Below, one piece after another: positions 7,375 to 49,905 of a stretch of DNA of 64,000 bases (positions are counted from its first letter, which is position 1; each line of letters begins with the position of its first letter). The stretch lies in NCBI GenBank assembly GCA_965223075.1, contig OZ244986.1, positions 3,116,101 through 3,180,100 of the forward strand. Reading direction: 5' to 3'. The notes under the pieces were generated by a model. The model saw only the letters and a list, made by a program, of their open reading frames with translations. It was not told the DNA's origin and did no database searches. The position numbers and the translations under genes were made by a program. This DNA comes from Candidatus Marinacidobacterium sp. Lineage in GTDB: Bacteria; Acidobacteriota; Vicinamibacteria; Marinacidobacterales; Marinacidobacteraceae.

Positions 7375-7552
7375 CAGCGGTGCCGATCTGAAGGCCCCCA
7401 CCGGGAGAACTGGCCGGCGTTCCCAACCTGCGGGCCGCGGTGCCGGCCGGAAGACCGGCGCTCCAGGCCGTCCCCGCGCTTTCGCTCCGTTGGCAGCGCG
7501 CGTTTCCCGCACCTGCGGGCCGCGATGCAGGTGTGAACTCCGGCGCTCCCCG
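7375..7552 (-). repeat. REP-like hairpin cluster, one copy carrying the 15-bp insert
   Basis: Hairpins at about 7380-7424 (with GGCC-CCCACCGGGAGAACT-GGCC at 7393-7415), at 7440-7464, and a degenerate copy at about 7525-7552. Confidence 0.8.
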
Positions 7553-7605
7553 ACTAAAATCGCCTGTTACCCATCGAGGTAGTAGCAGGAGGGTTCTCCA
7601 CGGCC

Positions 7606-9663
7606 ATGGTAAAGATGATTCGTTTCTCCTCCGGCAGGCTTTCTGACCGGCCCTTGTTCCTTGGTGCGCTGGTGTGCGCCGGGACTGTGCTCGCCGCGTC
7701 CGCCGCGGCGCAGGAACCCGCGGAACTCGTGGTGGATCCGCCGGAACTGACGCTTGAGGTCGGGAAGACCGCCCAGCTCACCGCGACCGTCAAGGACGGC
7801 GACGGAAACACGCTCGAGCGCGGCGTGGTCTTCTTCTCCCGCGCCCGACGCTACGTCGGGGTGAACCCCGCGGGGATGGTGGAAGCCCATCGGCCGGGGG
7901 ACCAGACCCTGATCGCGATGGTGCCGAGAGAACCCGGCGCCATGGACCGGCGCGCCGAGCCGGCGCTCATGGTCGAGATCCCGGTGCGGGTTCCGTGGCC
8001 GCCCCTCGCGAGCGTCGAGATCGCGGCGCTCCCGGCAAACCTCTACGCCGGCACTTCGTTCCGGGTCAGCGCTCTCGCCCAGGATACTTCCGGCGCTGAG
8101 CGCAAGCCCGGCTTCGAGTGGTCCTCGAGCGACTCTTCGGTGGCGACCGTCAGCGAGCACGGAGTGCTCATGCTGCACGGCGAAGGCTCCGCGACGATCT
8201 CGGCGAGCGCCGAATCGGTGAGCGGCGAGGCGGCGATCTCGGTGAGCGCCAACCCGGCGGTCCGCCTCGACGTCTCCGCGGGCGAAGACGAGGTGCGGAC
8301 CGGCGACGTGGTCTGGTTCAGCGCCCGCGCCCTCGACGCGAGCGGCAACGAAGTCCCGGACTATCCCCTGCAGTACGCGGTCTCCACCCGCACGCCCGAC
8401 ACCCTGGTGGCGCCCGGTGCGGCCGCCTTCGTGGAGCCGGACGGCGCCTTCGTGGCCGAGCGTCCGGGGCTCCACACGGTGGTGGTCTCCGCGGGATCCC
8501 TCACCGCGCGGGAGACGATCCGCGCTACTCCCCGCAACGTGAAGAAGGACTGGGAGGTCGTGGGCCGCGGGCCCGTCCGCGACCGGCACACCTCGGATCT
8601 GTGGGTCTGGGAAGGCGTCGACGGACGTGACTACGCGATCACCGGGACCTGGGGCGCCGACGGGCACGCCTACTTCTGGGACGTGAGCGATCCGTCGAGC
8701 ATCCACCTGGTGGACACCGTCCGGGTGGACGCCCGCACGGTCAACGACGTCAAGGTCTCGCCGGACGGGAAGTTCGCGGTCATCAGCCGCGAGGGAGCCT
8801 CGAACCGGAAGAACGGCCTGGTCGTGCTCAATGTCGAGAACCCCACGGACGGGGTGAAGATCATCGCGCGCTACGACGACCAGATGAGCGGCGGCGTCCA
8901 CAACGTGTTCGTGGCCGAGAGCCACATCCTGGCCCTGTCCGCCGGGCGCCGCTACGACATCCTGAACGCCGAGGATCCGACGAACCCCTACCGGGTCGGA
9001 CGCTTCGAGCTGGACACCCCGGGTCACGGCATCCACGACGTCTGGGTGCAGGACGGCATCGCCTGGTCCTCGAACTGGACCGACGGTGTGGTTGCGGTGG
9101 ACATCGGCGGGGGAGACCTCGGCGGCGCCCCGAACGACCCGAAGATGATGGGGAGCTTCAAGTACCCGAATGGCTGGAACCACGCGGGCTTCCCCTACCG
9201 GAGCCAGTCCACCGGCAAGTTGATGGTGTTCGCCGGGGACGAAAGCTTCCCCTGGAGCTTCGACCCCGACGGGAAGCTTCCCGACCGGGCCGCCGGCTGG
9301 ATTCACATCGCCGAGTGGGACGAGGACGGTGGGGAAGGCCGGGAAGTGGCCCGCTACCAGGTGCCCGAGGCCGGCAGCCACAACCTCTGGGTAGAGGACG
9401 ACATCCTCTACGTCGGTTACTACAACGGCGGCCTCCGGGTGGTGGACATTTCGGGCGACCTGCGCGGCGACCTCTATCAGCAGGGCCGGGAGATCGCTTT
9501 CTTCGAGCCGGCCGATCCCGACGGCTACAAGCGGAACGCTCCCTTCGTCTGGGGTCCCCAGCCCTTCAAGGACACCATCTTCTTCACCGACTTCAACTCG
9601 GGGCTTTGGGCGGTCAAGCTCGTCGATCCCGAAACGCCGCGCAACATGGGAGAACCCAACTGA
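7606..9663 (+). CDS. Secreted Ig-like (Big_2-like) plus LVIVD-repeat beta-propeller protein, paralogue 1
   Basis: Signal peptide ending AAAQ, Ig-like TPxxxTLEVG/ATV segments, and LVIVD-like blades (LVVLNVENP, LRVVDISG). Confidence 0.85.
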   Translation: MVKMIRFSSGRLSDRPLFLGALVCAGTVLAASAAAQEPAELVVDPPELTLEVGKTAQLTATVKDGDGNTLERGVVFFSRARRYVGVNPAGMVEAHRPGDQTLIAMVPREPGAMDRRAEPALMVEIPVRVPWPPLASVEIAALPANLYAGTSFRVSALAQDTSGAERKPGFEWSSSDSSVATVSEHGVLMLHGEGSATISASAESVSGEAAISVSANPAVRLDVSAGEDEVRTGDVVWFSARALDASGNEVPDYPLQYAVSTRTPDTLVAPGAAAFVEPDGAFVAERPGLHTVVVSAGSLTARETIRATPRNVKKDWEVVGRGPVRDRHTSDLWVWEGVDGRDYAITGTWGADGHAYFWDVSDPSSIHLVDTVRVDARTVNDVKVSPDGKFAVISREGASNRKNGLVVLNVENPTDGVKIIARYDDQMSGGVHNVFVAESHILALSAGRRYDILNAEDPTNPYRVGRFELDTPGHGIHDVWVQDGIAWSSNWTDGVVAVDIGGGDLGGAPNDPKMMGSFKYPNGWNHAGFPYRSQSTGKLMVFAGDESFPWSFDPDGKLPDRAAGWIHIAEWDEDGGEGREVARYQVPEAGSHNLWVEDDILYVGYYNGGLRVVDISGDLRGDLYQQGREIAFFEPADPDGYKRNAPFVWGPQPFKDTIFFTDFNSGLWAVKLVDPETPRNMGEPN

Positions 9664-10796
9664 TGTCTTCCCGACGCTTCCGGCGCTTCCCGGCGTTCCT
9701 TCTCCTCCTCGGGCTCGTTCTGCTTCCGCTGGCGGTCGCCGCCGAGGATCCGGAGCCGCCGAAGCGCAACTACTTCGTCTACGTTTGCGCGGAGTCGGAC
9801 GACACGGTCCACATGCTCCGCTATGGGCCCGGCGGGTTCGAGGAACTCGACGAGATTGCGGTCGGCAGCTTCCCGACGGAAACCGAGGGTCCGCACGGGA
9901 TCAACATCTCGCCCGACGGGCGCCACTGGTTCCTGTCCATCGCCCACGGCATGCCCTTCGGTGCGGTGCACAAGTACGAGACCGGAACCAACGAATGGGT
10001 CGGGGACGCCACGCTCGGAATGTTCCCGGCGACCATGGACGTCTCGCCGAGCACCGGGCTGCTCTACATCGTCAACTTCAACCTCCACGGCGACATGGTC
10101 CCGAGCACCATCTCGGTGGTGGAGACGGGGACCATGATCGAGGTGGCCACCATCGACACCGGAGTCATGCCGCACGGAGCGCGGATGAACGACGCCGGCA
10201 CCCGCCTCTACTCCGTCAACATGATGGACGACGAGCTCGTCGAAGTGGACACCATGCGCTTCGAAATCGCCCGGCGGCTGCCGCTCGGGACCGACCCGCA
10301 TGCCGGACACGCTGGCATGAACGACGGCGACATGGAAGGCATGCGGATGCCGGTGGTCAAGCCGACCTGGGCCACCAGCCCTTCGCCCGCCGGGAAGGTG
10401 TACGTGGCGGGGAACGGCGACAGCGCCATCTACGAGGTGGATATCAACGACTGGAAGGTGTCTCGCCGGTTCGACGCCGGGCCCGGCCAGAACCCCTACA
10501 ACCTCGAGATCACCTCGGACGGCTCGGTACTGATCGCCACCTACAAATCCGGCAAGAAGGTCGGCTTCTGGGATCTCGAGCGCGGCGAGCTGATCGCCGC
10601 GCCCGAGACCTCGCGGCGGGTTCCCCACGGGGTGGTGGTGTCCGACGACGACCGCTACGCCATCGTGACCCTGGAAGGGGTCGGGGGCGAACCGGGGACC
10701 GTGGAGGTCTATGACATCGGAGCCGCCCAGCGCGTCTCCCGGATCGACGTCGGCAAGCAGGCCGGCGGCATCATCTACTGGAAGGGCGAGCCGTAA
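9663..10796 (+). CDS. YncE/YVTN-family beta-propeller protein with His/Met-rich loop
   Basis: Start overlaps the paralogue 1 stop (TGATG). Signal peptide, PHG repeats, TISVVET and the loop PHAGHAGMNDGDMEGMRMP. Confidence 0.85.
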   Translation: MSSRRFRRFPAFLLLLGLVLLPLAVAAEDPEPPKRNYFVYVCAESDDTVHMLRYGPGGFEELDEIAVGSFPTETEGPHGINISPDGRHWFLSIAHGMPFGAVHKYETGTNEWVGDATLGMFPATMDVSPSTGLLYIVNFNLHGDMVPSTISVVETGTMIEVATIDTGVMPHGARMNDAGTRLYSVNMMDDELVEVDTMRFEIARRLPLGTDPHAGHAGMNDGDMEGMRMPVVKPTWATSPSPAGKVYVAGNGDSAIYEVDINDWKVSRRFDAGPGQNPYNLEITSDGSVLIATYKSGKKVGFWDLERGELIAAPETSRRVPHGVVVSDDDRYAIVTLEGVGGEPGTVEVYDIGAAQRVSRIDVGKQAGGIIYWKGEP

Positions 10797-10822
10797 GGTC
10801 TCGCTGAGGAGGAGAGGAAACG

Positions 10823-12886
10823 ATGACTCTCAGGAATTCGAACCCATGGCGGCGGCTTGCCGCCGTCCTTCTTTGTGCTCTGGTGGCGCCCGGATTCGCG
10901 CTCGCCCAGGAAGAAGAGGAAGCCGAAACCGGCCCGCAACCGACGGAACTCATCATCACGCCGTCCGAGGTCGAACTCGAGGTCGGCGACTCGCTGACGC
11001 TTCAGTCCGAGGTCCGGGACGCCGAAGGCAACCCGATGGACCGCACCGTGGTGTTCTATTCGCGCCGCCGCCGGGCGGTGGGCGTGAACCCGGCGGGCAT
11101 CGTGGAGGCCTACCGGCCCGGCGAGCACACCCTGATCGCCATGGTGCCGAAGGATCCGGAAGACACCAACCGGCGCGCCGAGCCCGCGGTGATGTTGGAG
11201 ATCCCGGTGACGATCCCCAACCCTCCGGTGGCTACGGTCGAGGTAGCGAACGTGCCGGGCCATCTCTACGCGGGGACCGAGATCGGGCTCCGCCCGGTGG
11301 TCACCGACATCTCGGGCGCCGTCCGGAACGACGTGGAAGTCGGCTGGACGACCGCCGATTCGTCGGTGGCGAACGTGGATTCCCTCGGGGTGCTCACCCT
11401 GGTGGGCGCCGGCCGGACGACCCTCACCGTCTCCGCCGAGGAGGCGTCGAGCGACGCCGCGATCGAGGTGCTCGCCAACCCGGTGACCTCGATCACCCTG
11501 GCCGGGGCGCCGGATGACTCGGTCCGGACCGGGGACGTGGTGTTCTTCGAGGCGCAGGTGACGGACGCTTCCGGGAACGAGGTGCCCGACTATCCGGTGC
11601 AGTTCGCGACTCTCGGGGTCCCGACGGACGGCATCGTGGCGCCGGGCGCCATCGGCCAGGTGGACGAGGCGGGCGCCTTCGTGGCGGAGCGTTCGGGTAC
11701 CCACACCGTGATCGCCGATGGATTCACGAAGTCGGCGAGCGCGACGGTGGCGGTGGTCGCGCGGAAGGTGCGGAAGGATGTCGAGATCGTGGGGCAGGGC
11801 CCCGTCCGCGACCGGCGCACCTCGGACCTTTGGGTCTGGGAGGGCACCGACGGCCGGGACTATGCGGTGACCGGCACCCACAGCGCCGACGGACACGCCT
11901 ACTTCTGGGACGTCACCGATCCCTCGGCGATCAGCCTCATCGACACGGTGCGGGTGGACGCCCGGACGGTGAACGACGTGAAGGTCTCCGAGGACGGAAA
12001 GTTCTGCGTGATCAGCCGCGAGGGCGCTTCGAACCGGAAGAACGGGCTCGTGATCCTCGACGTGAGCGACCCGCAGAACGGGATCGAGGTGATCGCCCGC
12101 TACGACGACCAACTCACCGGCGGGGTCCACAACGTCTTCGTCGCCGAGGACCACATCTACGCGCTCTCGGCGGGACGGCGCTACGACATCCTGAACGCCG
12201 AGGATCCGACGAATCCCTACCGGGTGGGCCGTTTCGAGATGGACACCCCGGGCCACTCGATCCACGACGTGTGGGTCCACGAGGGGATCGCCTATTCGTC
12301 CAACTGGAACGACGGAGTCGTGGCGGTGGACGTTGGCGGCGGCGGCAAGGGCGGCTCACCGAACAACCCGGTGCTGCTGGGGAACACCCCCTATCCGAGC
12401 GGCTGGAACCACGCCGCCTATCCCTACAAGAGCCAGTCCACCGGGAAGTTCCTGATGATCGGCGGGGACGAGGCGTTCCCCTACCAGACGATGCGTGAGG
12501 AGCGCACCCCGGGGCGGGCCGCCGGCTGGATCCACATCTTCGAATGGGACGAGTGGGAGAGCGCCCGCGAGGTGGCGCGCTACCAGGTGCCCGAGGCCGG
12601 GACCCATAACCTCTGGGTCGAGGACGACATTCTCTACATCGCCTACTACAACGGCGGCCTGCGGGTCGTGGACATCTCCGGCGAGCTCCGGGGCGATCTC
12701 TACCGGCAGGGCCGCGAGATCGCGATGTTCCGTCCGTTCGACCCCGAAAGCCGGGTTCCGAACGCGCCGATGGTCTGGGGACCGCAGCCCTACAAGGGCC
12801 ACATCTACCTGACCGACATGAACTCGGGGCTCTGGGCCGTCAAGCTCGTGGACGCCGAACCGGTGAACATGGGAGAGCCCGAGTAG
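10823..12886 (+). CDS. Ig-like plus LVIVD protein, paralogue 2
   Basis: Full-length homologue of 7606-9663, with RBS GAGGAGAGG upstream. Confidence 0.9.
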   Translation: MTLRNSNPWRRLAAVLLCALVAPGFALAQEEEEAETGPQPTELIITPSEVELEVGDSLTLQSEVRDAEGNPMDRTVVFYSRRRRAVGVNPAGIVEAYRPGEHTLIAMVPKDPEDTNRRAEPAVMLEIPVTIPNPPVATVEVANVPGHLYAGTEIGLRPVVTDISGAVRNDVEVGWTTADSSVANVDSLGVLTLVGAGRTTLTVSAEEASSDAAIEVLANPVTSITLAGAPDDSVRTGDVVFFEAQVTDASGNEVPDYPVQFATLGVPTDGIVAPGAIGQVDEAGAFVAERSGTHTVIADGFTKSASATVAVVARKVRKDVEIVGQGPVRDRRTSDLWVWEGTDGRDYAVTGTHSADGHAYFWDVTDPSAISLIDTVRVDARTVNDVKVSEDGKFCVISREGASNRKNGLVILDVSDPQNGIEVIARYDDQLTGGVHNVFVAEDHIYALSAGRRYDILNAEDPTNPYRVGRFEMDTPGHSIHDVWVHEGIAYSSNWNDGVVAVDVGGGGKGGSPNNPVLLGNTPYPSGWNHAAYPYKSQSTGKFLMIGGDEAFPYQTMREERTPGRAAGWIHIFEWDEWESAREVARYQVPEAGTHNLWVEDDILYIAYYNGGLRVVDISGELRGDLYRQGREIAMFRPFDPESRVPNAPMVWGPQPYKGHIYLTDMNSGLWAVKLVDAEPVNMGEPE

Positions 12887-13026
12887 CCGGAAAGACTCAG
12901 ATCACCCGCAATCGGCCGCCGTGAGGCGGGCGAAACCCGGGCCGTTCTCCTACGAGACGATCGGCGAAGGCGGGAGGCACGGTCGGGCCGCCCGGCACAA
13001 TTTCCGGGCGCCATCCCGGCGGCGCC

Positions 13027-13647
13027 TCAACCGGACGGCAGGCGGAAGTCGCGCGGCCGGAACTCCGGCGGGTTGACGATGCTGGCGCTGCTGCCCGTCG
13101 CCCGGATCACGAACAGTCCCTTTCGCTCAGCGTAGCGGGCTGTTCCCTCGTGAGCCCGAAGGTACGCGACCGCGCCGTACAGTCGCCTGCCCCGGACATG
13201 CCGCAGCAGGGGCGGGTGCGCCAGCAGGCCGAGGAATCTGTCCACATCGGGCGGTCGCAGCGTGGTCTTGACCTCGACCGCCACCGCTTCTTCCCCGTTC
13301 GTCGCGAGGAGATCAACCTCGCGTTCGTTTCGGCCGCACTCCAGCCGGAGGCGTGAGGAGACGGCTTCCACCTCCACCCCGCGTTCCCGCAGCAGCCTCA
13401 GCAGGTCCCCCTCGACGAGCGATTCCACCAGCCGCCCCCACTGGCTGGTGAACAGATCTTCCGCGCGCCGCAACCGCCGGTCGGTTTCCTTCATCTGCCG
13501 GTCGGTTTCCTTCATCCGCTGCTCGTTTTCCTTTGTCAGCCGATCCATCAGCCGATCCGTCTCCGCCTGGCGCTTCGCCACTCGGTCCAGAATCTTCCAG
13601 ATTCCCTCCGGGGTTGCGGGTGTCGGATCCGCCTGGGTGATGCTCAT
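13027..13647 (-). CDS. DUF3782-like coiled-coil plus PD-(D/E)xK nuclease-fold protein
   Basis: KETDRQMKETDR heptad repeats, SQWGRLVESLV and EVDLLATNGEEAVAVEVKT. Confidence 0.8.
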   Translation of the reverse strand: MSITQADPTPATPEGIWKILDRVAKRQAETDRLMDRLTKENEQRMKETDRQMKETDRRLRRAEDLFTSQWGRLVESLVEGDLLRLLRERGVEVEAVSSRLRLECGRNEREVDLLATNGEEAVAVEVKTTLRPPDVDRFLGLLAHPPLLRHVRGRRLYGAVAYLRAHEGTARYAERKGLFVIRATGSSASIVNPPEFRPRDFRLPSG

Positions 13648-13793
13648 GGACGCTTCCCTCCCTGAAGTCTATGCCGGTGCAGCGGGCTCTGGCGCACGGT
13701 CTCTCATCATGGACAGACGAAATTCCGGCCCGTTTTGTCCCACCTTCGGCAGGCGATGTGGAAAACTCGCTGCGAAGATCGCCTGGCGGCGCC

Positions 13794-14279
13794 GCTGGAG
13801 CCATGCCGGCTACCCCTGCGGGGGCCCCTCCACCGGGAAGTTCCCGATGATCGGCGGGGATGAGGCGTTCCCGTACCAGACGATGCGGGGGGAAGCGCAC
13901 TCCGGGCCGGGCCGCCGGCTGGATCCACATCTTCGAGTGGGACGAGTGGGACAGCGCCCGCGAAGTGGCCCGCTACCAGGTGCCCGAGGCCGGAACCCAC
14001 AACCTGTGGGTCGAGGACGACATCCTCTACATCGCCTACTACAACGGCGGCCTGCGGGTGGTGGACATCTCCGGCGACCCGCGGGGGGACCTCTACCGGC
14101 AGGGTCGCGAGATCGCGATGTCCCGTCCGTTCGACCCCGAGAGCCGGGTCCCGAACGCCCCGATGGTCTGGGGACCGCAGCCCTACAAGGGCCACATCGA
14201 CGTCAGCGACATGAACTCGAGGATTTGGGCCGTGAAGCTCGTGGACGCCGAACCGGTGAACATGGGAGAGCCCGAGTAG
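13794..14279 (+). pseudogene. Partial duplicate of the 3' end of LVIVD paralogue 2
   Basis: Aligns by eye to 12402-12886 and ends in the same VNMGEPE*. Frameshifted near 13885-13895; no start codon or N-terminal domains. Confidence 0.9.
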
Positions 14280-14430
14280 GGGAAGAACTCAGGCCGGGAT
14301 CGCCCGCCGCAGGCGGGCGAAACGCAGAGCGCCGCTCAGCGTGGAGGCGCGGCGTCCGGTCTGGAGGCGGCGCGTCCGTTGGTGGCGACGGCTTCCGTTC
14401 GGAGGCGGATGAAAGTGCGGGCTGAGGGGC

Positions 14431-14787
14431 TCATTCCTCAGTCCGCCTCCATGAACGATCGAACTCCGCGCAAGCGTCCGTCGAGCGCGTTTCGGTCACG
14501 AGCTTCTCGATCTTGCGGATCTCCGCGAGGGTGTCTTGTTGAAGACTCCGAATCGCCTCTTCCGGCATCCCTTCTGCCCGAAACCTCGCCACGTCCTCCT
14601 CCAGGTGGTCGCGGAGCACGCTTCCGCAGGCGCGGGCGCGTACGGACAGCCCGTCCGGCCTGATCATGTCCGGACTCGGCGGATTCAGAATGGCGGTCAC
14701 GATGGAAACGACCGCGAAGGCGCCACCGATGACCCGCGCGAGCGCCGATTTCCACAGGGAGCGGAATACGTGGTAGAGGATTCGCAC
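14431..14787 (-). CDS. Hypothetical protein with one N-terminal TM helix
   Basis: GTG start, hydrophobic VIGGAFAVVSIVTAIL segment and a helical charged tail. Confidence 0.5.
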   Translation of the reverse strand: MRILYHVFRSLWKSALARVIGGAFAVVSIVTAILNPPSPDMIRPDGLSVRARACGSVLRDHLEEDVARFRAEGMPEEAIRSLQQDTLAEIRKIEKLVTETRSTDACAEFDRSWRRTEE

Positions 14788-15060
14788 AGTCTCACCGCCG
14801 GGTAGGTGCCGCCGACCGGGTTCTGCCTGGAGCGGGCCACCGGTGGCGCCAGCGGCGGAGGAAACACTGCCACGCAAGGGGTCCGGTTCCCCTCCATGCG
14901 GTCGTCATCTTGTCCGGGTCGCGACTGCGATCCTGCCCCCGCCAGCACGGAAGCAAGTAAGGAGCACCCGGTTAGCGTCTCCGGCTGCCGCCAAGGTGCG
15001 CAGGTGGCCGCGGTCCGGAGCCTCTCGGGACACCTTGAGGATCACGGCCACATCATCATC

Positions 15061-15070
15061 GTATATTCCC
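15061..15070 (+). promoter_or_regulatory. Putative -10 element shared by LVIVD paralogues 3 and 4
   Basis: GTATATTCCC at 15061-15070 and the identical sequence at 19605-19614, each upstream of GCACCATGACCCGAAC. Confidence 0.45.
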
Positions 15071-15092
15071 GTGCACAGAGGGACCGCGCACC

Positions 15093-17147
15093 ATGACCCG
15101 AACACTCCGCCTCCACCTCATTCCCGTTGCAGCCGTCGCGCTTCTCCTCCTCGCTCTCCCCGCGTTCGCCCAGGAGGAGGAAGTGGAAACGGGCCCGCAA
15201 CCGGCCGAACTCATCATCACCCCGACCGAGCTCGAACTCGAGGTCGGCGACTCGCTGACGCTCCAGGCAGAAGTCCGGGACGGCGAGGGCAACCCGATGG
15301 ACCGCACGGTGGTGTTTTACTCCCGCCGGCGCCGTTCGGTCGGCGTCAACCCGGCGGGAATGGTCGAGGCCTACCGGCCCGGCGAGCACACCCTGATCGC
15401 CATGGTGCCCAAGGATCCGGAGGACATCGATCGCCGCGCCGAGCCCGCGGTCACGGTGGAGATCCCGGTGACGATCCCCAACCCGCCGGTGGCTTCGGTG
15501 GAGGTCGCGAATCTTCCCGGCCACCTCTATGCGGGAACCGAGATCGGCCTCCGCCCCCTGGTCACCGACATCTCGGGCGCCGTCCGGAACGACGTGGAAG
15601 TGGGCTGGACTACGGTCGATTCGTCGGTGGCGAGCGTGGACGCCCTCGGGGTGCTCACCCTGCTGGGCGCCGGGCGGACGACCCTGACGGTCTCCGCCGA
15701 GGAGGCTTCGAGCGACGCGACCATCGAAGTGCTCGCGAACCCGGTCGCCTCGATCACGCTGAGCGGGGCGCCGGACGAGCCGGCGCGGACCGGGGACGTG
15801 GTGTTCTTCGAAGCCAAGGTCACGGACGCCTCGGGGAACGAGGTGCCGGACTACCCGGTGCAGTTCGCCACCTTCGGGATTCCGGCGGATGGGATCGTGG
15901 CGCCCGGGGCCATCGGCCAGATCGATGAGGAGGGCGCCTTCGTGGCGGAGCGGTCGGGAACCCATACGGTGATCGTGGACGGGTTCACCGACTCCGCGAG
16001 CGCGACGGTCGCAGTCGTGTCCAGGAACGTGCGGAAAGATGTCGAGGTCGTGGGACGGGGCCCGGTCCGCGACCGGCGCACCTCGGACCTCTGGGTCTGG
16101 GAGGGCACCGACGGCCGGGACTATGCGGTCACCGGGACCCACAGCGCCGACGGGCACGCCTATTTCTGGGACGTCACCGATCCCTCGGCGATCTCGCTCA
16201 TCGACACGGTTCGGGTGGATGCCCGGACGGTGAACGACGTGAAGGTTTCGGCGGACGCGAAGTTCTGCGTGATCAGCCGGGAAGGCGCCTCGAACCGGAA
16301 GAACGGTCTGGTGATCCTCGACGTCAGCGACCTGCAAAACGGCATCGAGGTGATCGCCCGCTACGACGACCAGCTCACCGGCGGGGTCCACAACGTCTTC
16401 ATCGCGGAAGACCACATCTACGCGCTTTCGGCGGGGCGCCGCTACGACATCCTGAACGCCGAGGATCCGACGAACCCGTATCGGGTAGGTCGGTTCGAGA
16501 TGGACACTCCCGGCCATTCCATCCACGACGTGTGGGTCCACGAGGGCATCGCCTATTCGTCCAACTGGAACGACGGGGTCGTTGCGGTTGACGTAGGCGG
16601 CGGTGGCAAGGGCGGGGCGCCGAACAACCCGGTGATGCTCGGCAAGACTCCCTACCCGAGCGGTTGGAACCACGCCGCCTATCCCTACCGGAGCAAGTCC
16701 ACCGGCAAATTCCTGATGATCGGGGGCGACGAGGCGTTCCCGTACCAACTGATGGAGGGCGCGCGGGCCCCGCGCCGGGCGGCCGGCTGGATCCACATCT
16801 TCGAGTGGGACGAGTGGGAGAGCCCCCGCGAGGTGGCCCGCTACCAGGTGCCGGAGGCGGGAACCCACAACCTGTGGGTGGAGGACGACATCCTCTACAT
16901 CGCCTACTACAACGGCGGCCTGCGGGTGGTGGATATTTCCGGCGAAATGCGGGGTGACCTCTACCGGCAGGGCCGCGAGATCGCGATGTTCCGCCCGTTC
17001 GACCCCGAAACCGTAAAGCCGAACGCACCGTTCGTCTGGGGACCGCAGCCCTACAAGGGCCACATCTTCATCGCCGACAACACTTCGGGGCTCTGGGCGG
17101 TCAAGCTCGTGGACGCCGAGCCAGTGAACATGGGCGAACCCCAATAA
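15093..17147 (+). CDS. Ig-like plus LVIVD protein, paralogue 3 (mosaic)
   Basis: First 29 aa are identical to paralogue 4; the body is closest to paralogue 2. Confidence 0.9.
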   Translation: MTRTLRLHLIPVAAVALLLLALPAFAQEEEVETGPQPAELIITPTELELEVGDSLTLQAEVRDGEGNPMDRTVVFYSRRRRSVGVNPAGMVEAYRPGEHTLIAMVPKDPEDIDRRAEPAVTVEIPVTIPNPPVASVEVANLPGHLYAGTEIGLRPLVTDISGAVRNDVEVGWTTVDSSVASVDALGVLTLLGAGRTTLTVSAEEASSDATIEVLANPVASITLSGAPDEPARTGDVVFFEAKVTDASGNEVPDYPVQFATFGIPADGIVAPGAIGQIDEEGAFVAERSGTHTVIVDGFTDSASATVAVVSRNVRKDVEVVGRGPVRDRRTSDLWVWEGTDGRDYAVTGTHSADGHAYFWDVTDPSAISLIDTVRVDARTVNDVKVSADAKFCVISREGASNRKNGLVILDVSDLQNGIEVIARYDDQLTGGVHNVFIAEDHIYALSAGRRYDILNAEDPTNPYRVGRFEMDTPGHSIHDVWVHEGIAYSSNWNDGVVAVDVGGGGKGGAPNNPVMLGKTPYPSGWNHAAYPYRSKSTGKFLMIGGDEAFPYQLMEGARAPRRAAGWIHIFEWDEWESPREVARYQVPEAGTHNLWVEDDILYIAYYNGGLRVVDISGEMRGDLYRQGREIAMFRPFDPETVKPNAPFVWGPQPYKGHIFIADNTSGLWAVKLVDAEPVNMGEPQ

Positions 17148-17203
17148 AGGAGAGACTCAGCAGTCGCGCGGGGACGCCGACAGTTCGGGTGGCGCGCAGG
17201 CAA

Positions 17204-17241
17204 GGGAACGCCGGCCAGTTCTCCCGGTGGGGGCCTTCAGA
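17204..17241 (+). repeat. Left half of a REP-like hairpin split by IS1634, containing the 15-bp insert
   Basis: GGGAACGCC-GGCC-AGTTCTCCCGGTGGG-GGCC-TTCAGA. The right half (TCAGACCGGCACCGCGGCCC) resumes at 19207. Confidence 0.8.
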
Positions 17242-19206
17242 GCGATAGTTCCAAGCGTTGCCAAGACCTAACTCGATGATAGTCGTGTAGTTATGGTTGC
17301 GTCGGGTTGTTCGGTCCTGGCTACATTTTGGGCTGGACGCCGAGGAGGTCGAAGCATCGCTGCTGGAGTGGGGAGGGCAGCGTCTGGAGGGGGAAGGTTT
17401 CGTCGCGGTCCTTGATCTTCACGGTGTTGAGGGCGATGGTGCCGAGGTTTTCGAGCAGATCCCGGAAGGCCTGGACGGAGAGGTCGTCCTCGGTGCGCTT
17501 CTTGGCGGCCTTTTTCTCGGCGGCGGGGGAGCGTTGGGCGGGGGCGACGATGGATCGGCGTCGGCTCTCGGCGGCGTCCTTTTGGTGGTCTTCGAAGAGG
17601 ATGGGGGCGAGGGCGCGGCGCATGTGCCACTCGATGTAGTAGGCGAGCGTGCAGAGGAGAACGTGGGCGCGCACCCGGTCACTGCGCCAGTGGTGGATGG
17701 GCCGGAGGAGTTCGATGGTTTTGAGGCAGCGGAAGGCGCGCTCGACGCGGGCGAGATCCTTGTAGGCGCGGACCGTTTGCTGCGCGTCGAAGCGTTCGGG
17801 TTCGACATTGGAGCGGACGACGTAGATGCCTTCGAGGGCGACTGCCTTTCGGATCTGGTCCTGGTTGCGCTGGAAGGAGAAGGAGGAATCGGTGATCTGG
17901 TGGGTGAAGAACTTGCCCACCTTGTAGCGGTCGATGACCTTTCCGAAGCGGGTGCCGATCTTGTCCTCGCCCCGCAGGGGCGCCCTCTCCCGCTGGGTGG
18001 CGACCACGATGCGCCGGAGGAGTTTTTCGGTGGCCTGCAGCAGGTCCTCGCGCTTTCGGCGCTGCTCCCCGGCCAGCTTGGGATTGCGGCAGACGATGAG
18101 CCGCTCGCCGGGGTATTCGTCGGAGGTGATTTCGAAGAGGTCGCGCTCCTCGAACAGGGAGGGGGGCGGCCGTTCGGCGTTGAGGAGCTTGCGGATCATG
18201 GGCTTGCGGAGGGAGGAGATCCAGCGCAGCCCCTCGACGCCCTGGAGGTCTTCGCGGATGCGGGCGGCGGTGAGCATGCCCCGGTCGCCGACCATCACCA
18301 ACCGTTCGATGCCGAAGGAGGTCTTGAGCTTTTGGAGCTGGCCGGCGACGGTCTGGGGATCGGTGGTGTTCCCGGGGAAGACCTCGACGGCGACCGGGCG
18401 GCCTTCGGGATCGGTGAGCAGCCCGATGACGATCTGGAGCTTGCCTTGCTTCTTGTCGCGGCTGTAGCCGCGCTTGGCGAGGGGGCAGTGCTTGCCCTCG
18501 AAGTAGGAGGAGGTGATGTCGTAGAGGACGAGGGTGTTGTCGGCGAGGTGTCGTCGGGCGAGTTTTTTCTCGATGGCGTGTTGGTGAGTGCCGAGCCAGT
18601 CGAGCGCGGCGTAGAGCTCGTTTTCATGGACAGGCCCGAGTTGGAGGACTTGGCCGAGGGAAGAGTGTTTGGTTTCGGGGTTGAGGGCGCGGCTGGTGGC
18701 GAGCTTGGAGCAGGGTTTGAGGACGCGGTTTGCGATCATGGCGGTGACGAGGTCGCGGTTTCGGGAGGGTTTTCGGTCGAGGAGGGAAGGGAGGCCGAGT
18801 CTGTGGAGGGTTCCGAGGATGGCGGCGACGTGTCCGTGGGGGAGGGAGCGGACGATGTCGATTGCCTCCCGGATGGGGATGTCGGCGAGGGTTGCGCCTT
18901 TGAGGATGCGTCGGAGCGATTCGACGGCGGCGGGGTTTCGTCGGTGGAGTTTGGTGAGGTTTGCGAGGGTGCGTTTGAGGACCTTGCGGCCGTCGCGGAC
19001 GGACTCTCGGAGGAGGACGGCGGGGGGGGAGCTGCGGTTGGGGACGAACTCAATATACATGGGCACGATAATAAGACACACAATACTGACAGTCAATAGT
19101 AAACATCACTCCACATGTTCTATTACATGGCTACAACATTGCATCCGAAAATCCCATAAACGACCATGAGTCACGAAGTTAGATCAGAAAACCGCTGGAA
19201 CTACCG
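17242..19206 (-). mobile_element. IS1634-family insertion sequence
   Basis: Transposase ORF; imperfect ~37-bp terminal inverted repeats (CGATAGTTCCA...CTAACTCGATGA versus CGGTAGTTCCA...CTAACTTCGTGA); TCAGA direct repeat at 17237-17241 and 19207-19211. Confidence 0.85.
17321..19060 (-). CDS. IS1634-family DDE transposase (579 aa from MYIEF)
   Basis: MYIEFVPNRSSPPAVLLRES, LYDITSSYFEG, GYSRD, VGDRGM and YKDLARVERAFRCLK...RPIHHW. Confidence 0.92.
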   Translation of the reverse strand: MYIEFVPNRSSPPAVLLRESVRDGRKVLKRTLANLTKLHRRNPAAVESLRRILKGATLADIPIREAIDIVRSLPHGHVAAILGTLHRLGLPSLLDRKPSRNRDLVTAMIANRVLKPCSKLATSRALNPETKHSSLGQVLQLGPVHENELYAALDWLGTHQHAIEKKLARRHLADNTLVLYDITSSYFEGKHCPLAKRGYSRDKKQGKLQIVIGLLTDPEGRPVAVEVFPGNTTDPQTVAGQLQKLKTSFGIERLVMVGDRGMLTAARIREDLQGVEGLRWISSLRKPMIRKLLNAERPPPSLFEERDLFEITSDEYPGERLIVCRNPKLAGEQRRKREDLLQATEKLLRRIVVATQRERAPLRGEDKIGTRFGKVIDRYKVGKFFTHQITDSSFSFQRNQDQIRKAVALEGIYVVRSNVEPERFDAQQTVRAYKDLARVERAFRCLKTIELLRPIHHWRSDRVRAHVLLCTLAYYIEWHMRRALAPILFEDHQKDAAESRRRSIVAPAQRSPAAEKKAAKKRTEDDLSVQAFRDLLENLGTIALNTVKIKDRDETFPLQTLPSPLQQRCFDLLGVQPKM

Positions 19207-19349
19207 TCAGACCGGCACCGCGGCCCGTTGTCGGGCTGGATGGCACCACCGGCAAGGGTCCCCAGCGGGAGACTGGGGCCGACATCCAGGTCGGCATCGC
19301 GCGCCTGAGGCGGGCGTGTGCCCCGTGCTCGGAGCCCGATCCGCGCCCT

Positions 19350-19547
19350 TCGGGACAACAACTTCACGAAAATGGCGATGAGTGCTGCGTTAACGAACAG
19401 CGCTCCATACACCAACCACCTGTAGATCCGCACGTCGCGCTCAGCCATCTCCAGCCGCAGATCGGCCAGGTCCTGTTTGCTGGCGAAGTTGGCCAGGTCC
19501 GTTCTCATGGCTGCATTCTGGGTCATTGGCTGAACCAGCGCCACCAC
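19350..19547 (-). pseudogene. DUF1640/CCDC90-like fragment
   Basis: FASKQDLADLRLEMAERDVRIYRWLV followed by a TM helix ending FVKLL. No clear native start; the track ORF runs on into the IS end. Confidence 0.35.
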
Positions 19548-19651
19548 CGACGAAACCTGCTTGCACCTCCACCGTACACGTGCGGTGTCGCGCTCGCGAG
19601 GCGCGTATATTCCCCGGTCATGGGGGACCGCATTCCGGCCCTCGCTGCACC

Positions 19652-21709
19652 ATGACCCGAACCCTCCGCCTCCACCTCATCCCCGTTGCGGCCGTCGCCC
19701 TGCTCCTCCTCGCCCTTCCCGCGTTCGCGCAGGAGGAGGCCGAGGAGACCACCGGTCCCGAGCCCACCGAACTCGTCGTCACCCCGAGCGAACTGACGCT
19801 GGAGGTGGGAGCGAACGCCACCCTCGAGGCTGAGGTGCGCGACGCCGACGGCAACGCGATGGAGCGCACGGTGGTGTTCTTCTCGCGGAGCCGCCGCTCG
19901 GTCGGGGTGAACCCCGCCGGGATCGTGGAGGCCTTTCGGCCCGGCGAGCACACCCTGATCGCCATGGTGCCGAGGAATCCGGAGCACACCGACCGGCGCG
20001 CGGAGCCGGCGGTCATGGTCGAGATTCCGGTTACCATCCCGAACCCGCCGGTCGCCACCGTCGAGGTCGCGAATCTGCCTGGCCACGTCTACGCAGGGAC
20101 CGAGGTCGGGCTCCGTCCACTGGTTACGGACACCTCGGGCGCCACCCGGAACGACGTGGGGGTTCGCTGGAGCACCGCCGATCCGTCGGTGGCGGGGGTG
20201 GACGCACTCGGGATGCTCAGCCTGACGGGGGCCGGTCGCACGACCCTCACCCTCTCCGCCGAAGAGGCTTCGACCGACGTCGGGATCGAGGTGCTTCCGA
20301 ACCCGGTCGCCTCGATCACCCTGACCGGGACCCCGGCGGAGGCCGTGCGCACGGGTGACGTCGTGTTCTTCGAGGCGAAGGTCACCGACGCCTCCGGAAA
20401 CGCGGTGCCGGACTACCCGGTCCAGTTCGCGACTCTCGGGATCCCGGCGGACGGCATCGTGGCGCCGGGGGCCATCGGCCAGGTGGACGAGTCCGGCGCG
20501 TTCGTGGCGGAGCGTTCGGGCACCCACACGGTGATCGCCGACGGGTTCACGACCTCGACGAGCGCCACGGTCGCCGTAGTGGCGCGCAAGGTGCGGAAAG
20601 ACGTGGAGATCGTGGGGCAGGGCCCGGTCCGCGACCGGTACACCTCGGACCTCTGGGTCTGGGAGGGCATCGACGGCCGGGACTACGCGGTGACCGGGAC
20701 CTGGGGCGCCGACGGCCACGCTTACTTCTGGGACGTTACCGATCCCTCCGCGATGTCGCTCATCGACACGGTGCGGGTGGACGCCCGGACCGTCAACGAC
20801 GTCAAGGTCTCCGAAGACGGAAAGTTCTGCGTGATCAGCCGGGAGGGCGCTTCGAACCGGAAGAACGGGCTCGTGATCCTCGACGTCAGCGATCCGCAGA
20901 GCGGCGTCCAGGTCATCGCCCGCTACGACGATCAGCTCACCGGCGGGGTCCACAACGTGTTCATCGCGGAGGAGCACATCTACGCACTCTCCGCGGGCCG
21001 GCGTTTCGACATCCTGAACGCCGAGGATCCGGAAAACCCCTACCGGGTCGGGCGCTTTGAGCTGGATACGCCGGGCCACTCCATCCACGACGTGTGGGTG
21101 GTGGACGGGATCGCGTATTCGTCGAACTGGGATGACGGAATTGTCGCGGTGGATGTGGGCGGCGGCGGCATGGGCGGCGCGCCGAACAACCCGGTGCTGC
21201 TGGGGAGCGCCCCGCATCCGAGCGGCTGGAACCACGCCGCCTATCCCTATAAGAGCCAGTCCACCGGCAAGTTCCTGATGATCGGGGGCGACGAGGCGTT
21301 CCCCTACCAGACCATCGGAGAGGCCAACACCCCTGATCGGGCCGCCGGCTGGATTCACATCTTCGAGTGGGACGAATGGGAAGAGGCCCGCGAGGTGGCG
21401 CGCTACCAGGTGCCCGAGGCCGGAACCCACAACCTGTGGGTCGAGGACGACATCCTCTACATCGGTTACTACAACGGCGGCCTGCGGGTGGTGGACATCT
21501 CCGGCGAACTCCGCGGCGACCTCTACCGCCAGGGCCGCGAGATCGCGGTCTTCTGGCCGCAGGATCCGGAGAGCTTCATCCCGAACGCGCCGATGGTCTG
21601 GGGACCGCAGCCCTACAAGGGTCACATCTTCGTCGCCGACCACCATTCGGGTCTGTGGGCGGTGAAGCTGGTGGATCCGGAGCCGGTGAACCTGGGCGAA
21701 CCGCAGTAG
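19652..21709 (+). CDS. Ig-like plus LVIVD protein, paralogue 4
   Basis: Full-length homologue; ATG 19652 matches the start of paralogue 3. Confidence 0.9.
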   Translation: MTRTLRLHLIPVAAVALLLLALPAFAQEEAEETTGPEPTELVVTPSELTLEVGANATLEAEVRDADGNAMERTVVFFSRSRRSVGVNPAGIVEAFRPGEHTLIAMVPRNPEHTDRRAEPAVMVEIPVTIPNPPVATVEVANLPGHVYAGTEVGLRPLVTDTSGATRNDVGVRWSTADPSVAGVDALGMLSLTGAGRTTLTLSAEEASTDVGIEVLPNPVASITLTGTPAEAVRTGDVVFFEAKVTDASGNAVPDYPVQFATLGIPADGIVAPGAIGQVDESGAFVAERSGTHTVIADGFTTSTSATVAVVARKVRKDVEIVGQGPVRDRYTSDLWVWEGIDGRDYAVTGTWGADGHAYFWDVTDPSAMSLIDTVRVDARTVNDVKVSEDGKFCVISREGASNRKNGLVILDVSDPQSGVQVIARYDDQLTGGVHNVFIAEEHIYALSAGRRFDILNAEDPENPYRVGRFELDTPGHSIHDVWVVDGIAYSSNWDDGIVAVDVGGGGMGGAPNNPVLLGSAPHPSGWNHAAYPYKSQSTGKFLMIGGDEAFPYQTIGEANTPDRAAGWIHIFEWDEWEEAREVARYQVPEAGTHNLWVEDDILYIGYYNGGLRVVDISGELRGDLYRQGREIAVFWPQDPESFIPNAPMVWGPQPYKGHIFVADHHSGLWAVKLVDPEPVNLGEPQ

Positions 21710-21743: not shown

Positions 21744-22559
21744 TTACTCCTCGCGCCTCCCGGGAGCGCCCGGCAGCAGCGAAATGAGCCGGGCTCTGAC
21801 TTTTCGCGCCGCCGCTTCCAAATCCCACGAGTACCCGTGCGCGAGCAGGGGGGTGATGTCGCTGCCGAACTGCGGGTCGCGAACCTTGGCGGTGAGGTTT
21901 CGTTCAAACGTCGCGCGCCCTACGGGACCATCGGTGCGCGCCATGTGTTCGGCGAACGCCTCTGCGACGCGGGCGGGATTGACGGCGGCTCTGTCGAGAG
22001 CGGTGGCGAGATCGAACAGGTCGCGGCCCTTTTTGCGCTGGTAGAGCGCCCGCAACTTGGTGGCGAGCAGTTCGTCAAGTTCGTAGGTCACGACATCGGC
22101 GATTCCGCTGAACCAGCGCGAGGTTACGGTGAACGGGATTCTCACGAGCCCAAACACGGAGTAATGCTCGCGCGAGCTGATCTCGACCTTCAGGCGTAGC
22201 CGCAAAGGGGGCGTATCCTCGGAAGTGAAGCGGTAGATGAAGGTGACGCGGGCCTCGGTCTGCTTCCATTTCGGTTTGCCGAGCCAGGGATCCAGAGCCT
22301 CCCGCACGCCGTCCATGACCGGACCGATGGGTCCGGGGGCGGTCTGCACCAGATCAATGTCCTCCGAGTACCGCGCGGGCGGCGTCAGATAGAGCTTGTA
22401 GAGCGCAGTACCGCCACGAAACGCCAGCTCGCTGGCCACCGCCTCTTGGGAGAAGAGTTCGACCAGTGCCCGGGCGACGACCAGGTCCTGCTCGACCTGA
22501 GCATCCTGGACCCAGGGCGCCCGCGCTCGCCACTCGGTGACGTAGTCGCGCGGGATCAC
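21744..22559 (-). CDS. abiEii: AbiEii-family nucleotidyltransferase toxin (type IV TA)
   Basis: QVEQDLVVARAL, FRGGTALYKLY, RYSEDIDL and KLRALYQRKKGRDLFD. The GTG start overlaps the antitoxin stop. Confidence 0.9.
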   Translation of the reverse strand: MIPRDYVTEWRARAPWVQDAQVEQDLVVARALVELFSQEAVASELAFRGGTALYKLYLTPPARYSEDIDLVQTAPGPIGPVMDGVREALDPWLGKPKWKQTEARVTFIYRFTSEDTPPLRLRLKVEISSREHYSVFGLVRIPFTVTSRWFSGIADVVTYELDELLATKLRALYQRKKGRDLFDLATALDRAAVNPARVAEAFAEHMARTDGPVGRATFERNLTAKVRDPQFGSDITPLLAHGYSWDLEAAARKVRARLISLLPGAPGRREE

Positions 22560-24449: not shown

Positions 24450-24660
24450 AGTGAAACCCGCGGGAGCGCCGAGACGGGCGAGGCCCAGTTCTCGCGGCGG
24501 GTGCCGGCTGAAGCCGGTGGCCAGTTCTCCCGGTGGGGGCCCCGGTCTACGCGTCCTCCACGCTGATCAGCCAAGCGCGGTTCCGCTGCGCGTTGCGCAG
24601 CGGATGCTGGCTGAAGCCGGCGTTCCTTGACCGGCGCGCCATGCAGGCCCTCCGCGTTGC
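24450..24660. repeat. REP-like cluster with the 15-bp insert
   Basis: GGCC-AGTTCTCCCGGTGGG-GGCC at 24519-24541, and a degenerate copy at 24487-24501. Confidence 0.7.
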
Positions 24661-26671: not shown

Positions 26672-26799
26672 GACCCCGGCTCCTTCTCGATCCGGCCGCG
26701 ACCCCGGCGGCCGGAACACAGGACGGAGACTACTGGATGCGCGACGCGGATTCCGCGCCACGAGGGGTCAACAGCCTGTGGAGAAAGTGACGTGAGCAC

Positions 26800-35468: not shown

Positions 35469-35543
35469 CGGCGGCCGCCTCCGGCCGGCCTCGACTCGCA
35501 TCGGCCCGGAACGCCCTCCGGGCTTCGGTGCGGAACCTTCCGG

Positions 35544-48744: not shown

Positions 48745-48915
48745 AGAGCGCGGGGACGGCCGGGAACGCGGGCCAGTCCTCCCGGTGGGGGCCTTCAGAT
48801 CAGACCGGCACCGCTGCGCGAAGCGCAGCGAAACCGCGCATCGCTACGGAGAAAAAGCGCACAGACGGCTTGGAACGCCGACCTCCGGTCGGCACCGCTC
48901 CCCGCAGGGGAGCGA
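48745..48915 (+). repeat. REP-like cluster with 15-bp insert and TCAGA doublet
   Basis: GGCC-AGTCCTCCCGGTGGG-GGCC at 48771-48793; TCAGATCAGA at 48795-48804; intact hairpin at 48872-48895. Confidence 0.8.
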
Positions 48916-49059
48916 GACAGTCTCCAGGCCGGGCGTGGCGCGCCGCACGGACACCGGGAGGCGCAACTACAATTCCCCCCGTTGCCCCGAATCGGGGGAT
49001 GTCAGGTCCGTAGAACGCGGCGCCACGCCGACGCCCGGCCTGTCCAAGGGAGACTCCGC

Positions 49060-49809
49060 ATGAGATCCACGATGTCGCTCGCGCTCTCGGCGGCGCTGGC
49101 GTGCGCGGCGCTGGCCAGCAACGGCTGGGCGCAGCCCGAGCCGCAGCCGCCCCCGGACAAGGAGGCCGTGCGGGAGATCGTCCGGGAGTACCTGCTCGAG
49201 CACCCGGAGGTCATCGAAGAGGCGATCCTCGCGCTCAACGCGAAGCGCCAGGCCGCAAAGGCGGCGAGGGCGCGGGACGCGCTGATGAAGAACCAAGCGG
49301 CGCTGGTCGGCCATCCGATGTCGCCGGTTTCCGGCAACCCCGAGGGCGACGTGACGCTCGTCGAGTTCTTCGACTACCAGTGCGGCCACTGCAAGCGCTC
49401 GCTCGCGCCGGTCATGGATCTGCTGAAGAGCGATCCGGGGCTGCGGATCGTGTGGAAGGATTTTCCGATACTCGGGCCGGTCTCGAGCTTCGCCGCGCTC
49501 GCGTCCATGGCGGCGCACAAGCAGGACAAGTATCAGGCGTTCCACGAGGCGGTCATGGGCGCGCGGGATCGTCTCAGCGAGGACTCGGTGATGGTGATCG
49601 CGGAGCGGGTCGGACTCGACATCGAGCGCCTGCAGCAGGACATGGCCGATCCCGAGATCGCGGCCTATCTGGGCGAGACGCAGCGTCTTGCCCGCGAACT
49701 GGGCATCACGGGGACCCCGGCCTTCGTGATCGGGAACACGCTGGTGCCGGGCGCGGTGGACGGCGCGCGGCTCAGGCAACTCATCGCCGAGGCCCGCAGC
49801 GGCGGCTGA
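49060..49809 (+). CDS. DsbA-family thiol-disulfide oxidoreductase
   Basis: Signal peptide, VREYLLEHPEVI, EFFDYQCGHCKR and GITGTPAFVIG. Confidence 0.93.
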   Translation: MRSTMSLALSAALACAALASNGWAQPEPQPPPDKEAVREIVREYLLEHPEVIEEAILALNAKRQAAKAARARDALMKNQAALVGHPMSPVSGNPEGDVTLVEFFDYQCGHCKRSLAPVMDLLKSDPGLRIVWKDFPILGPVSSFAALASMAAHKQDKYQAFHEAVMGARDRLSEDSVMVIAERVGLDIERLQQDMADPEIAAYLGETQRLARELGITGTPAFVIGNTLVPGAVDGARLRQLIAEARSGG

Positions 49810-49824
49810 CGGCCGCCCGGCCGC

Positions 49825-49905
49825 GAGAGCGCGCAGACGGCCGGGAACGCCGACCTCCGGCCAGTTCTCCCGGTGGGGGCCGGCACCGCTCCCCGCAGGG
49901 GAGCG
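49825..49905 (+). repeat. REP-like hairpin with the 15-bp insert in its right arm
   Basis: GGGAACGCCGACCTCC-GGCC-AGTTCTCCCGGTGGG-GGCC-GGCAC (insert at 49863-49877). Confidence 0.8.

Follow-up and report, generated by a model that had tools for sequence, protein, structure and literature searches.

A 20-nucleotide unit present or absent at sites within intergenic repeats of sponge-type Acidobacteriota

Three described systems come closest to the repeat reported here. In Neisseria, dRS3 is a high-copy intergenic repeat of 20 base pairs (bp) that bounds many families of 30–150-bp repeat modules and forms strain-variable arrays that are apparently substrates for recombination; its variable centre lies between terminal inverted repeats of 6 bp, and it is the integration site for filamentous prophages (PMC1797815). 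Repetitive extragenic palindromic (REP) sequences and REPINs are short, noncoding, intergenic, high-copy and geneless, with mobilisation presumed to occur in trans (PMC3116915 and PMC3337134). The GC clusters of yeast mitochondria (for example, GC42) are very short, GC-rich, palindromic sequences of ~30–50 nucleotides (nt) in AT-rich organelle DNA that proliferate, merge, nest and vary between strains, with a putative AG target duplication and recombination exchange at conserved flanks, by a mechanism that is left unresolved in that account (PMC4478555). Here we describe a 20-nt unit that lies inside intergenic repeats of Candidatus Marinacidobacterium sp. (GenBank assembly GCA_965223075.1, contig OZ244986.1, positions 3,116,101–3,180,100). 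The 64,000-nt stretch analysed is called the window hereafter, and coordinates refer to it unless a contig is named.

The closest behavioural match to this unit is dRS3 with the Neisseria intergenic mosaic elements (NIMEs). As in that system, units bound modules and mark the junctions of deletions and chimeras, and arrays differ between the window and contig L113 from a related strain. Unlike dRS3, the unit is wholly conserved, its symmetry is limited to CC...GG(C), it has no phage link and it appears as a clean addition in continuous sequence. With REP/REPIN systems (mobilised by RAYT transposases of the Y1 HUH type, with bacterial interspersed mosaic elements, BIMEs, as their mosaics) it shares the properties of being short, noncoding, intergenic and high-copy, and it sits inside REP-like hairpins; unlike those hairpins (25–100+ nt), it measures 20 nt, has no significant fold, interrupts REP stems and replaces target bases. 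It resembles GC clusters in size class and nesting but is half their size and non-palindromic, makes no duplication and lies in a bacterial chromosome of 68% GC. We class the unit with the short intergenic mosaic or mobile repeats, as a new variant.

An initial annotation of the window had proposed a 15-bp micro-element inserted at GGCC with a 4-bp target duplication. The seven copies that it listed were all confirmed in coordinates, AGTCC variants and flanks: the 15-mer AG(T/C)TCTCCCGGTGGG matches the window seven times, against 0.02 matches expected from shuffled sequence, with AGTCC instead of AGTTC in two copies. GGCC stands on each side of the copies at 7397 (minus strand, 7397–7411), 17217, 24523, 48775 and 49863, while the copy at 31126 has GGCCC on both sides and that at 26811 has GGCC on the left and GAGC on the right. 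All seven are intergenic in a gene map based on G+C content at third codon positions (GC3), and the window as a whole has a G+C content of 68%. A discrete short module in pre-existing repeats at many sites was borne out, but its length was not: the conserved block is the 20-mer CC-AGTTCTCCCGGTGGG-GGC (259 copies pooled, then 340, drawn from genomes of related Vicinamibacteria and from sponge metagenomes). Among the 340 copies, CC lies to the left of the 15-mer in ~95% and GG, mostly GGC, to the right, with flank pairs CC/GGC in 259, CC/GGG in 29, CC/GCC in 24 (a tandem arrangement) and CC/GGT in 11. GGCC on both sides, which had been predicted for copies at large, was found in just 49 (14%), and one copy is flanked by GGGC...GCCC, an inverted rather than a direct repeat.

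The 20-mer is non-palindromic, GC-rich and noncoding. Its only internal symmetry is the 2–3 bp of CC...GG(C), and the remainder is asymmetric and conserved throughout. We found no significant stable fold of the unit (GGCC-unit-GGCC, −2.8 kcal/mol; z = 0.47 versus shuffles), and its presence inside a REP stem gives a poorer predicted REP fold. Unit 'dialects' exist, namely AGTCC and, in OZ246946, GGTTCTCCCGGTAGG. Searching the window with the 20-mer consensus yielded five exact copies, two variants and one decayed copy; a further decayed copy lies at ~19258–19277 (minus strand) and a probable one at 32566–32583 (minus strand) (Table 1). An Rfam search of the window copies gave no match at gathering thresholds and one unrelated weak match at E ≤ 1, and neither tRNA overlap nor a tRNA-derived origin of the copies was found. 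An assembly or adapter artefact, against which the initial annotation had advised a check, is excluded by the recurrence of the same copies in independent assemblies (Logan contig L111 and ENA contig L113) and in short-read and long-read sponge metagenomes. As that annotation had also stated, no described element so small matches: a literature search for the unit sequence returned one unrelated primer-like match and no published description, and a search on repeats of sponge Acidobacteria returned nothing relevant.

The nature of the insertion was read from filled and empty versions of the same site, of which four orthologous pairs were compared. In the first pair, one REP holds the unit in only one of two metagenome-assembled genomes (L072 and L017) that are ~96% identical overall, and the ~200 nt to either side match except for one substitution ~30 nt upstream. 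One allele reads GGCCGGC-AT-CGCGCGGG and the other GGCCGGC-GGCC[15]GGC-CGCGCGGG, so that AT is replaced. The other three pairs come from L113, which was found by homology search through a 97%-identical S9 peptidase and is syntenic with 12.9–36.2 kb of the window at ~98% identity; unit presence differs at three sites within 22 kb. Two of these are empty in the window and filled in L113: at GGC-GT-TCC (26958–26976), GT is replaced and the flanks are identical, and at GGA-AA-GCC (27310–27319), AA is replaced and three substitutions fall in the next 20 nt. At the third, the 31126 copy is filled in the window and empty in L113 (GGC-GT-TCCAAGCC).

About a dozen paralogous classes of filled and empty sites gave the same picture, with the 20-mer replacing GT, GC, AA, GA, AT, TG, TT, T or GTT; in one class TAT is replaced with one extra G, and GGCGCCC sites can equally be aligned so that 18 nt are cleanly inserted. 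Replaced bases number one to three, usually two, often form an A/T island between G/C runs, and leave a net gain of 18 nt. Empty sites such as GGC-GT-TCC, GGA-AA-GCC, GGC-AT-CGC and CGG-T-CGG lose their middle bases and duplicate none. Insertion of the unit makes no target duplication. A lone GGCC, which empty sites had been expected to show, was seen at none of the orthologous and paralogous sites examined. At the 17217 locus of L113, the T of an otherwise perfect GCCGGTC/GACCGGC REP hairpin has been replaced, and the appearance of GGCC...GGCC arises because a GG-T-C target (REP stem CGG-T-C) received CC...GGC. Nor is GGCC itself the target, since the window holds 1326 such sites and those occupied all lie within repeats.

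Differing hairpin positions had been taken as a sign of independent insertions. In the window, three copies (7397, 17217 and 48775) share one REP position and two (24523 and 31126) share another, whereas other genomes provide good evidence for independence. At the GGC-GT-TCC position of the REP family, the window has ~13 empty sites and two filled. The 49861 locus of a related strain holds a different REP, which is empty, and in L114 (98% protein identity) the flanks differ and the palindromic carrier element described below is free of units, which left no clean pair of alleles to compare there.

Table 1 Unit copies, empty sites and unit-like ends in the window
Feature	Coordinates	Strand	Context
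Exact 20-mer CCAGTTCTCCCGGTGGGGGC	7394–7413	-	REP-like hairpin stem, site type CGG-T-C; Logan contig L111 ends within the unit
Exact 20-mer	17215–17234	+	REP stem; REP intact in L113 (GCCGG-unit-C TTCA GACCGGC); REP loop interrupted by an insertion sequence (IS) in the window
Decayed unit, 3 mismatches	24485–24504	+	'Class 3' position, fragment of the palindromic terminal inverted repeat (TIR) element; same in L113
Exact 20-mer	24521–24540	+	3' foot of REP hairpin, site type GGC-GT-TCC
Short TIR-element derivative	26772–26880	+	Single unit at 26809–26828, AGTCC variant, right end GAG
Exact 20-mer	31124–31143	+	3' foot of REP hairpin; L113 orthologue empty (GGCCGGC-GT-TCCAAGCC)
Unit, AGTCC variant	48773–48792	+	REP stem, position class of 7394 and 17215
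Exact 20-mer	49861–49880	+	Right arm of REP stem; paralogue at ~48880 empty (CCGG-T-CGGC)
Old decayed unit CCAG-TCTCCCGCTGGGGAC, 1-nt deletion	19258–19277	-	GGC-GT-TCC position of REP
Empty REP site CGGC-GT-TCCA	26958–26976	-	Orthologous L113 REP filled by 20-mer
Empty REP site CGGC-TT-TCCA	27310–27319	+	Orthologous L113 REP filled by 20-mer
Unit-like end GTTTCTCCCGGTGGG of module B	4500–4514	+	Further ends at 27178–27192 (-) and, degenerate, at 3900–3914 (-)

Two kinds of repeat carry the unit. The first is a REP-like family, GTGCCGG-loop-CCGGCGTTCC. The second is a 179-bp palindromic TIR element that resembles miniature inverted-repeat transposable elements (MITEs), with inverted ends CAGCCTGTGG and a long-hairpin fold (z = −6.8). 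Its length rises with the number of units from 179 bp (none) through 197–198 (one), 215 (two) and 233 (three) to 251 bp (four), or 18 nt per unit. In L113 (reverse complement, 20866–21290, corresponding to window position 35477), a four-unit and a zero-unit TIR element lie in tandem between two genes, and neither copy is present in the window. Four paralogous copies in OZ246946 hold differing numbers of units, from three to approximately seven, a pattern consistent with stepwise gain, and among them is a unit within another unit at CCCGG-T-GGGG. Several genomes have tandem units with GCC between them, and tandem or nested copies were found in L006, L099 and L033/L052/L101. Units are found in both orientations, frequently paired as inverted copies within intergenic hairpins, and in the predicted fold of the TIR element those of one arm pair with those of the other. 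The suggestion that the unit is a minimal mobile unit in REPs is plausible and strengthened; the unit is polymorphic between close strains, nests and stacks.

Units also mark rearrangement junctions. In the TIR element they bound 30–50-nt modules of alternating orientation, and they connect otherwise unrelated modules, including a longer repeat called module B. The 15-mer end sequence does terminate module B, as had been noted, with TCTCCCGGTGGG at 4503–4514 (plus strand) and 27178–27189 (minus strand), and module B is joined to other modules at this unit-like end. At the single unit of the element at 26772–26880, the left flank is that of one unit position and the right flank that of a different one, and we read the junction as a deletion through recombination between two direct units; in L059, most of one element is lost from a unit onward. 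It is shown or strongly indicated that recombination between units produces tandem arrays, deletions and chimeric mosaics, and that the unit, once present, travels with its carrier repeats. Transfer between homologous REPs probably also occurs by gene conversion, although its support is a single clustered set of substitutions. Separately, the window carries ~141 bp of additional REP units at 31100–31270 relative to L113, a difference that is a local expansion or contraction of the REP array.

Beyond the window, a scan for the exact 15-mer in one genome per species found at least 109 loci. Approximately 47 of the listed loci are single matches in unrelated phyla, in coding DNA with random flanks, and these chance matches were used as a negative control for the flanks. 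Multi-copy matches, among those listed, all belong to sponge-type Acidobacteriota of the class Vicinamibacteria, including Ca. Marinacidobacterium, and the densest 8-kb block holds 16 copies. Genomes with 75–79% identity to the window in coding DNA carry a mostly identical unit. A metagenome scan with the 20-mer added 88 stretches, mostly from the contig sets LXNJ01, LXNI01 and MKWU01, which we take to be sponge metagenomes, plus Ga0209021. One 6-kb contig binned as Gammaproteobacteria (L083, JAKZVH010000183.1) has two units in typical REP contexts and represents either mis-binned Vicinamibacteria DNA or horizontally transferred repeats.

We searched the surroundings of the units for an enzyme or a parent element. 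Open reading frames (ORFs) were clustered from 62 loci and the window and later from ~1.3 Mb of related DNA (~3,900 ORFs); clustering and inspection, without a full domain scan, revealed no transposase, HUH nuclease or reverse transcriptase family recurring near units. The clustering yielded only housekeeping paralogues, false ORFs through repeats, an IS630 with unrelated ends and an IS4-like transposase far from units. By clustering and inspection alone, no RAYT or Y1/HUH-like family was seen among the recurrent ORFs of the 64-kb window and the 8-kb blocks of its relatives. Neither split half-units nor long elements ending in the unit were found in the ~1.3 Mb, where partial units are point-mutated, nested or chance matches. 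Coding ORFs contained no convincing copy and one doubtful match. A phage attachment site was considered and rejected: 2.9 million viral contigs gave one chance match, in a viral contig of 52% GC.

The IS elements that were met, an IS630 in L002 and L054 and a DDE_Tnp_1 element in the window, have ends unrelated to the unit. The IS630-family copies at L002:5476–6622 and L054:4185–5331, both from Ca. Marinacidobacterium, are identical and flanked by TA; for one of them the insertion point is the exact end of a palindromic TIR element, and their inverted repeats are unrelated to both the TIR element and the unit. The window element is a 1.96-kb low-GC insertion (17241–19206) in the loop of the REP that holds the 17215 unit, bounded by a TCAGA repeat and encoding a 591-amino-acid (aa) DDE_Tnp_1 transposase on the minus strand (17321–19096). 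Part of it is ~75% identical to DNA in L020, and it is a recent IS insertion, as it is absent from the ~98% identical strain represented by L113.

Our leading, still tentative, explanation is that the unit is a 20-nt module with defined ends inserted by a trans-acting factor, by a route that we infer. At a new site, a sequence-specific factor acting in trans would copy the module in with its ends defined, at a staggered break of ~2 nt whose overhang would be lost to give the replaced dinucleotide. The module would then spread with its carrier repeats and probably also by gene conversion between REPs, and recombination between units would generate deletions and mosaics. Such a factor is suggested because about a dozen unrelated contexts show the same ends and because the unit is near-invariant in genomes with 75–79% identity in coding DNA. 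R2 retrotransposons are known to lose 2 bp of target through a staggered break and loss of the overhang. A bolder version, in which the 20-mer would be the smallest mobile element yet seen and a trans enzyme, encoded at some other locus of Vicinamibacteria genomes, would copy it into hairpin DNA with removal of ~2 target bases, is doubtful; candidate catalysts would be a single-strand nuclease of the HUH or another type and a reverse transcriptase with a fixed RNA template. We are similarly hesitant about the proposal that the feature might represent a new kind of insertion pathway outside current classifications.

Unlike DDE-type MITEs and IS elements, the unit lacks inverted repeats long enough for a transposase to bind, and no target duplication accompanies it; the terminal inverted repeats and long-hairpin fold shared with MITEs belong to the 179-bp carrier and not to the unit. 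Palindrome-associated transposable elements (PATEs), the miniatures of IS200/IS605, have subterminal hairpins and insert on the 3' side of a fixed tetra- or pentanucleotide, where all target bases are kept, whereas the unit has no hairpins, its targets vary and one to three bases are replaced. Models with a serine or tyrosine recombinase core, or with a 2-bp duplication, were rejected on paper, as both junction dinucleotides (CC and GC) are fixed whatever the target.

Several observations weigh against insertion by a dedicated factor. No catalyst was found among the clustered ORFs, and base replacement matches the outcome of no characterised bacterial transposition pathway. The junction ends vary somewhat, with an extra G or GG on the left and GGG or GGT on the right, and the number of replaced bases varies from one to three, as imprecise templated repair would also give. 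At the AA site in L113 the three substitutions cluster beside the unit, which fits gene conversion from a filled paralogue. The three polymorphisms between the window and L113 alone do not prove new insertion, because all are at a REP position with filled paralogues. Because most loci were retrieved with the exact unit sequence, the sample is biased towards intact copies. Lastly, the raw count of 111 'distinct contexts' overstates independent insertions, because recombination between units makes chimeric contexts; approximately a dozen target contexts are well supported.

The rival that survives best, possible if doubtful, is passive spread with no dedicated machinery: hairpin-forming repeats rich in G/C would exchange the module by replication template switching and short-patch gene conversion, and the two arms of the palindromic element would do so by quasipalindrome correction. 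Template-switch mutagenesis in quasipalindromes is an established mechanism, and spread of this kind would account for target bases being replaced rather than duplicated, for the few junctions with extra flank bases (G, GG) that resemble donor copies and for the clustered substitutions beside one polymorphic unit. It also agrees with the predicted pairing of opposite-arm units in the TIR element, with units at deletion junctions and with the failure to find an associated enzyme gene near units. Yet the CC...GGC ends are the same in about a dozen unrelated contexts, and at GGC-GT-TCC the best microhomology (GGC) predicts that GT is kept when in fact it is lost. Passive spread also leaves unexplained why one sequence spreads and stays near-identical across genomes that have diverged by 20–25%.

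Alternatively, and improbably, the unit could be a functional signal kept by selection or drive, putatively an uptake-type sequence or the site of a nucleoid, recombination or regulatory protein, with its abundance due to biased retention after rare illegitimate insertions. DNA uptake sequences and uptake signal sequences (DUS/USS) are 10–15-nt motifs that are conserved across related genera with dialects, have many copies and frequently form inverted pairs within hairpins between genes; the unit, too, is very highly conserved across genera with dialects, and is dense in the sampled DNA in both orientations and as inverted pairs in intergenic hairpins. It reads UCUCCC on one strand, with the Shine–Dalgarno-like complement GGGAGA, and module B pairs both in a hairpin at 3871–3915. 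However, DUS/USS arise mainly by point mutation and occur in genes too, whereas whole 20-mers appear at once and coding ORFs have no convincing copy. A functional role could account for the conservation but leaves the insertion step unexplained, and so complements the other explanations.

Classical cut-and-fill transposition of a 15-bp element at GGCC with a 4-bp target duplication, as first proposed from the GGCC (or GGCCC) on both sides of six of the seven window copies, is contradicted by the low share of pooled copies so flanked (49 of 340), the absence of a single GGCC from every empty site examined, the copy with GGGC/GCCC flanks and the 1326 window GGCC sites left untouched. The least credible reading makes the unit the excision footprint of a larger mobile element, or that element's ends joined together. 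In its favour stands the related 13–15-mer at one end of the longer module B. Against it, no half-unit pairs spaced by long DNA were found in the ~1.3 Mb, clustering and inspection showed no transposase recurring near units, the IS elements met have unrelated ends, and stacking, nesting or a gain of exactly 18 nt at every insertion would not be expected of a footprint.

Short repeats between genes rank with the least-understood components of bacterial genomes, and the 20-mer, which may be the smallest insertion-prone DNA unit seen in bacteria, is a sharply defined case, with 20 nt, fixed ends, a quantised 18-nt footprint, filled and empty alleles in close strains, and nested and tandem copies. 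Should a dedicated factor be responsible for its insertion, mobile DNA would be known at a smaller size than before, the insertion chemistry would delete rather than duplicate target, and a compact sequence-writing activity would be worth seeking. If no factor is involved, the unit offers an unusually clean natural record of how template switching and gene conversion act on hairpin repeats. In both cases the unit accounts for some of the mosaic repeats and assembly breaks in genomes of uncultivated sponge symbionts and provides a simple marker of their strain-level variation.

Other repeats of the window were recorded alongside the unit. Module B is a ~130–190-nt repeat (3871–4000, 4400–4514 on the minus strand, and 27178–27300) that ends at a REP; further copies lie at L006:6078–6280 and in L164 and L179. 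It starts with CC(C/G)ACCGGGAGAAAC-N4-(A/G)TGATCGG and includes a Shine–Dalgarno-like GGGAGA, a start codon and a conserved MIG(P/S)(S/A) mini-ORF, and at 3871–3915 an upstream unit-like TTCTCCCGTTGGGG pairs with the GGGAGA region in a hairpin. A REP-flanked noncoding repeat of ~200 bp, GCCCGCCGAAGGCGGGCGGCGGGAAGGAC...GGCGGACGGCAAGGAACCGCCC, occurs at 4170–4400 and 26960–27160, has no Rfam match and is 85–92% identical to copies in L062 and L113. The segment at 26881–27692 is ~0.8 kb of noncoding DNA between 20-bp inverted repeats (CCCGCATTTCTCATACTCAC / GTGAGTATGAGAAATGCGGG); in L113 it has the opposite orientation and lies on the other side of the adjacent TIR element, so that it is either invertible or mobile, or the product of two inversions. 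Approximately 3 kb (3177–6216) lacks any ORF with the local codon-position GC pattern and is dense in REPs, module B and other repeats.

Among the genes of the window, four tandem paralogues encode secreted proteins of ~685 aa (7606–9663, 10823–12886, 15093–17147 and 19526–21709, spanning 7606–21709), with an extra fragment at 13851–14279 and REP clusters between them. The first paralogue (7606–9663) was scanned and contains Big_2 and LVIVD repeats, and the others were grouped with it by sequence similarity. An AbiEii toxin and AbiEi antitoxin pair (21744–23362, minus strand), a type IV toxin–antitoxin or abortive-infection module, is present in L113 as well.

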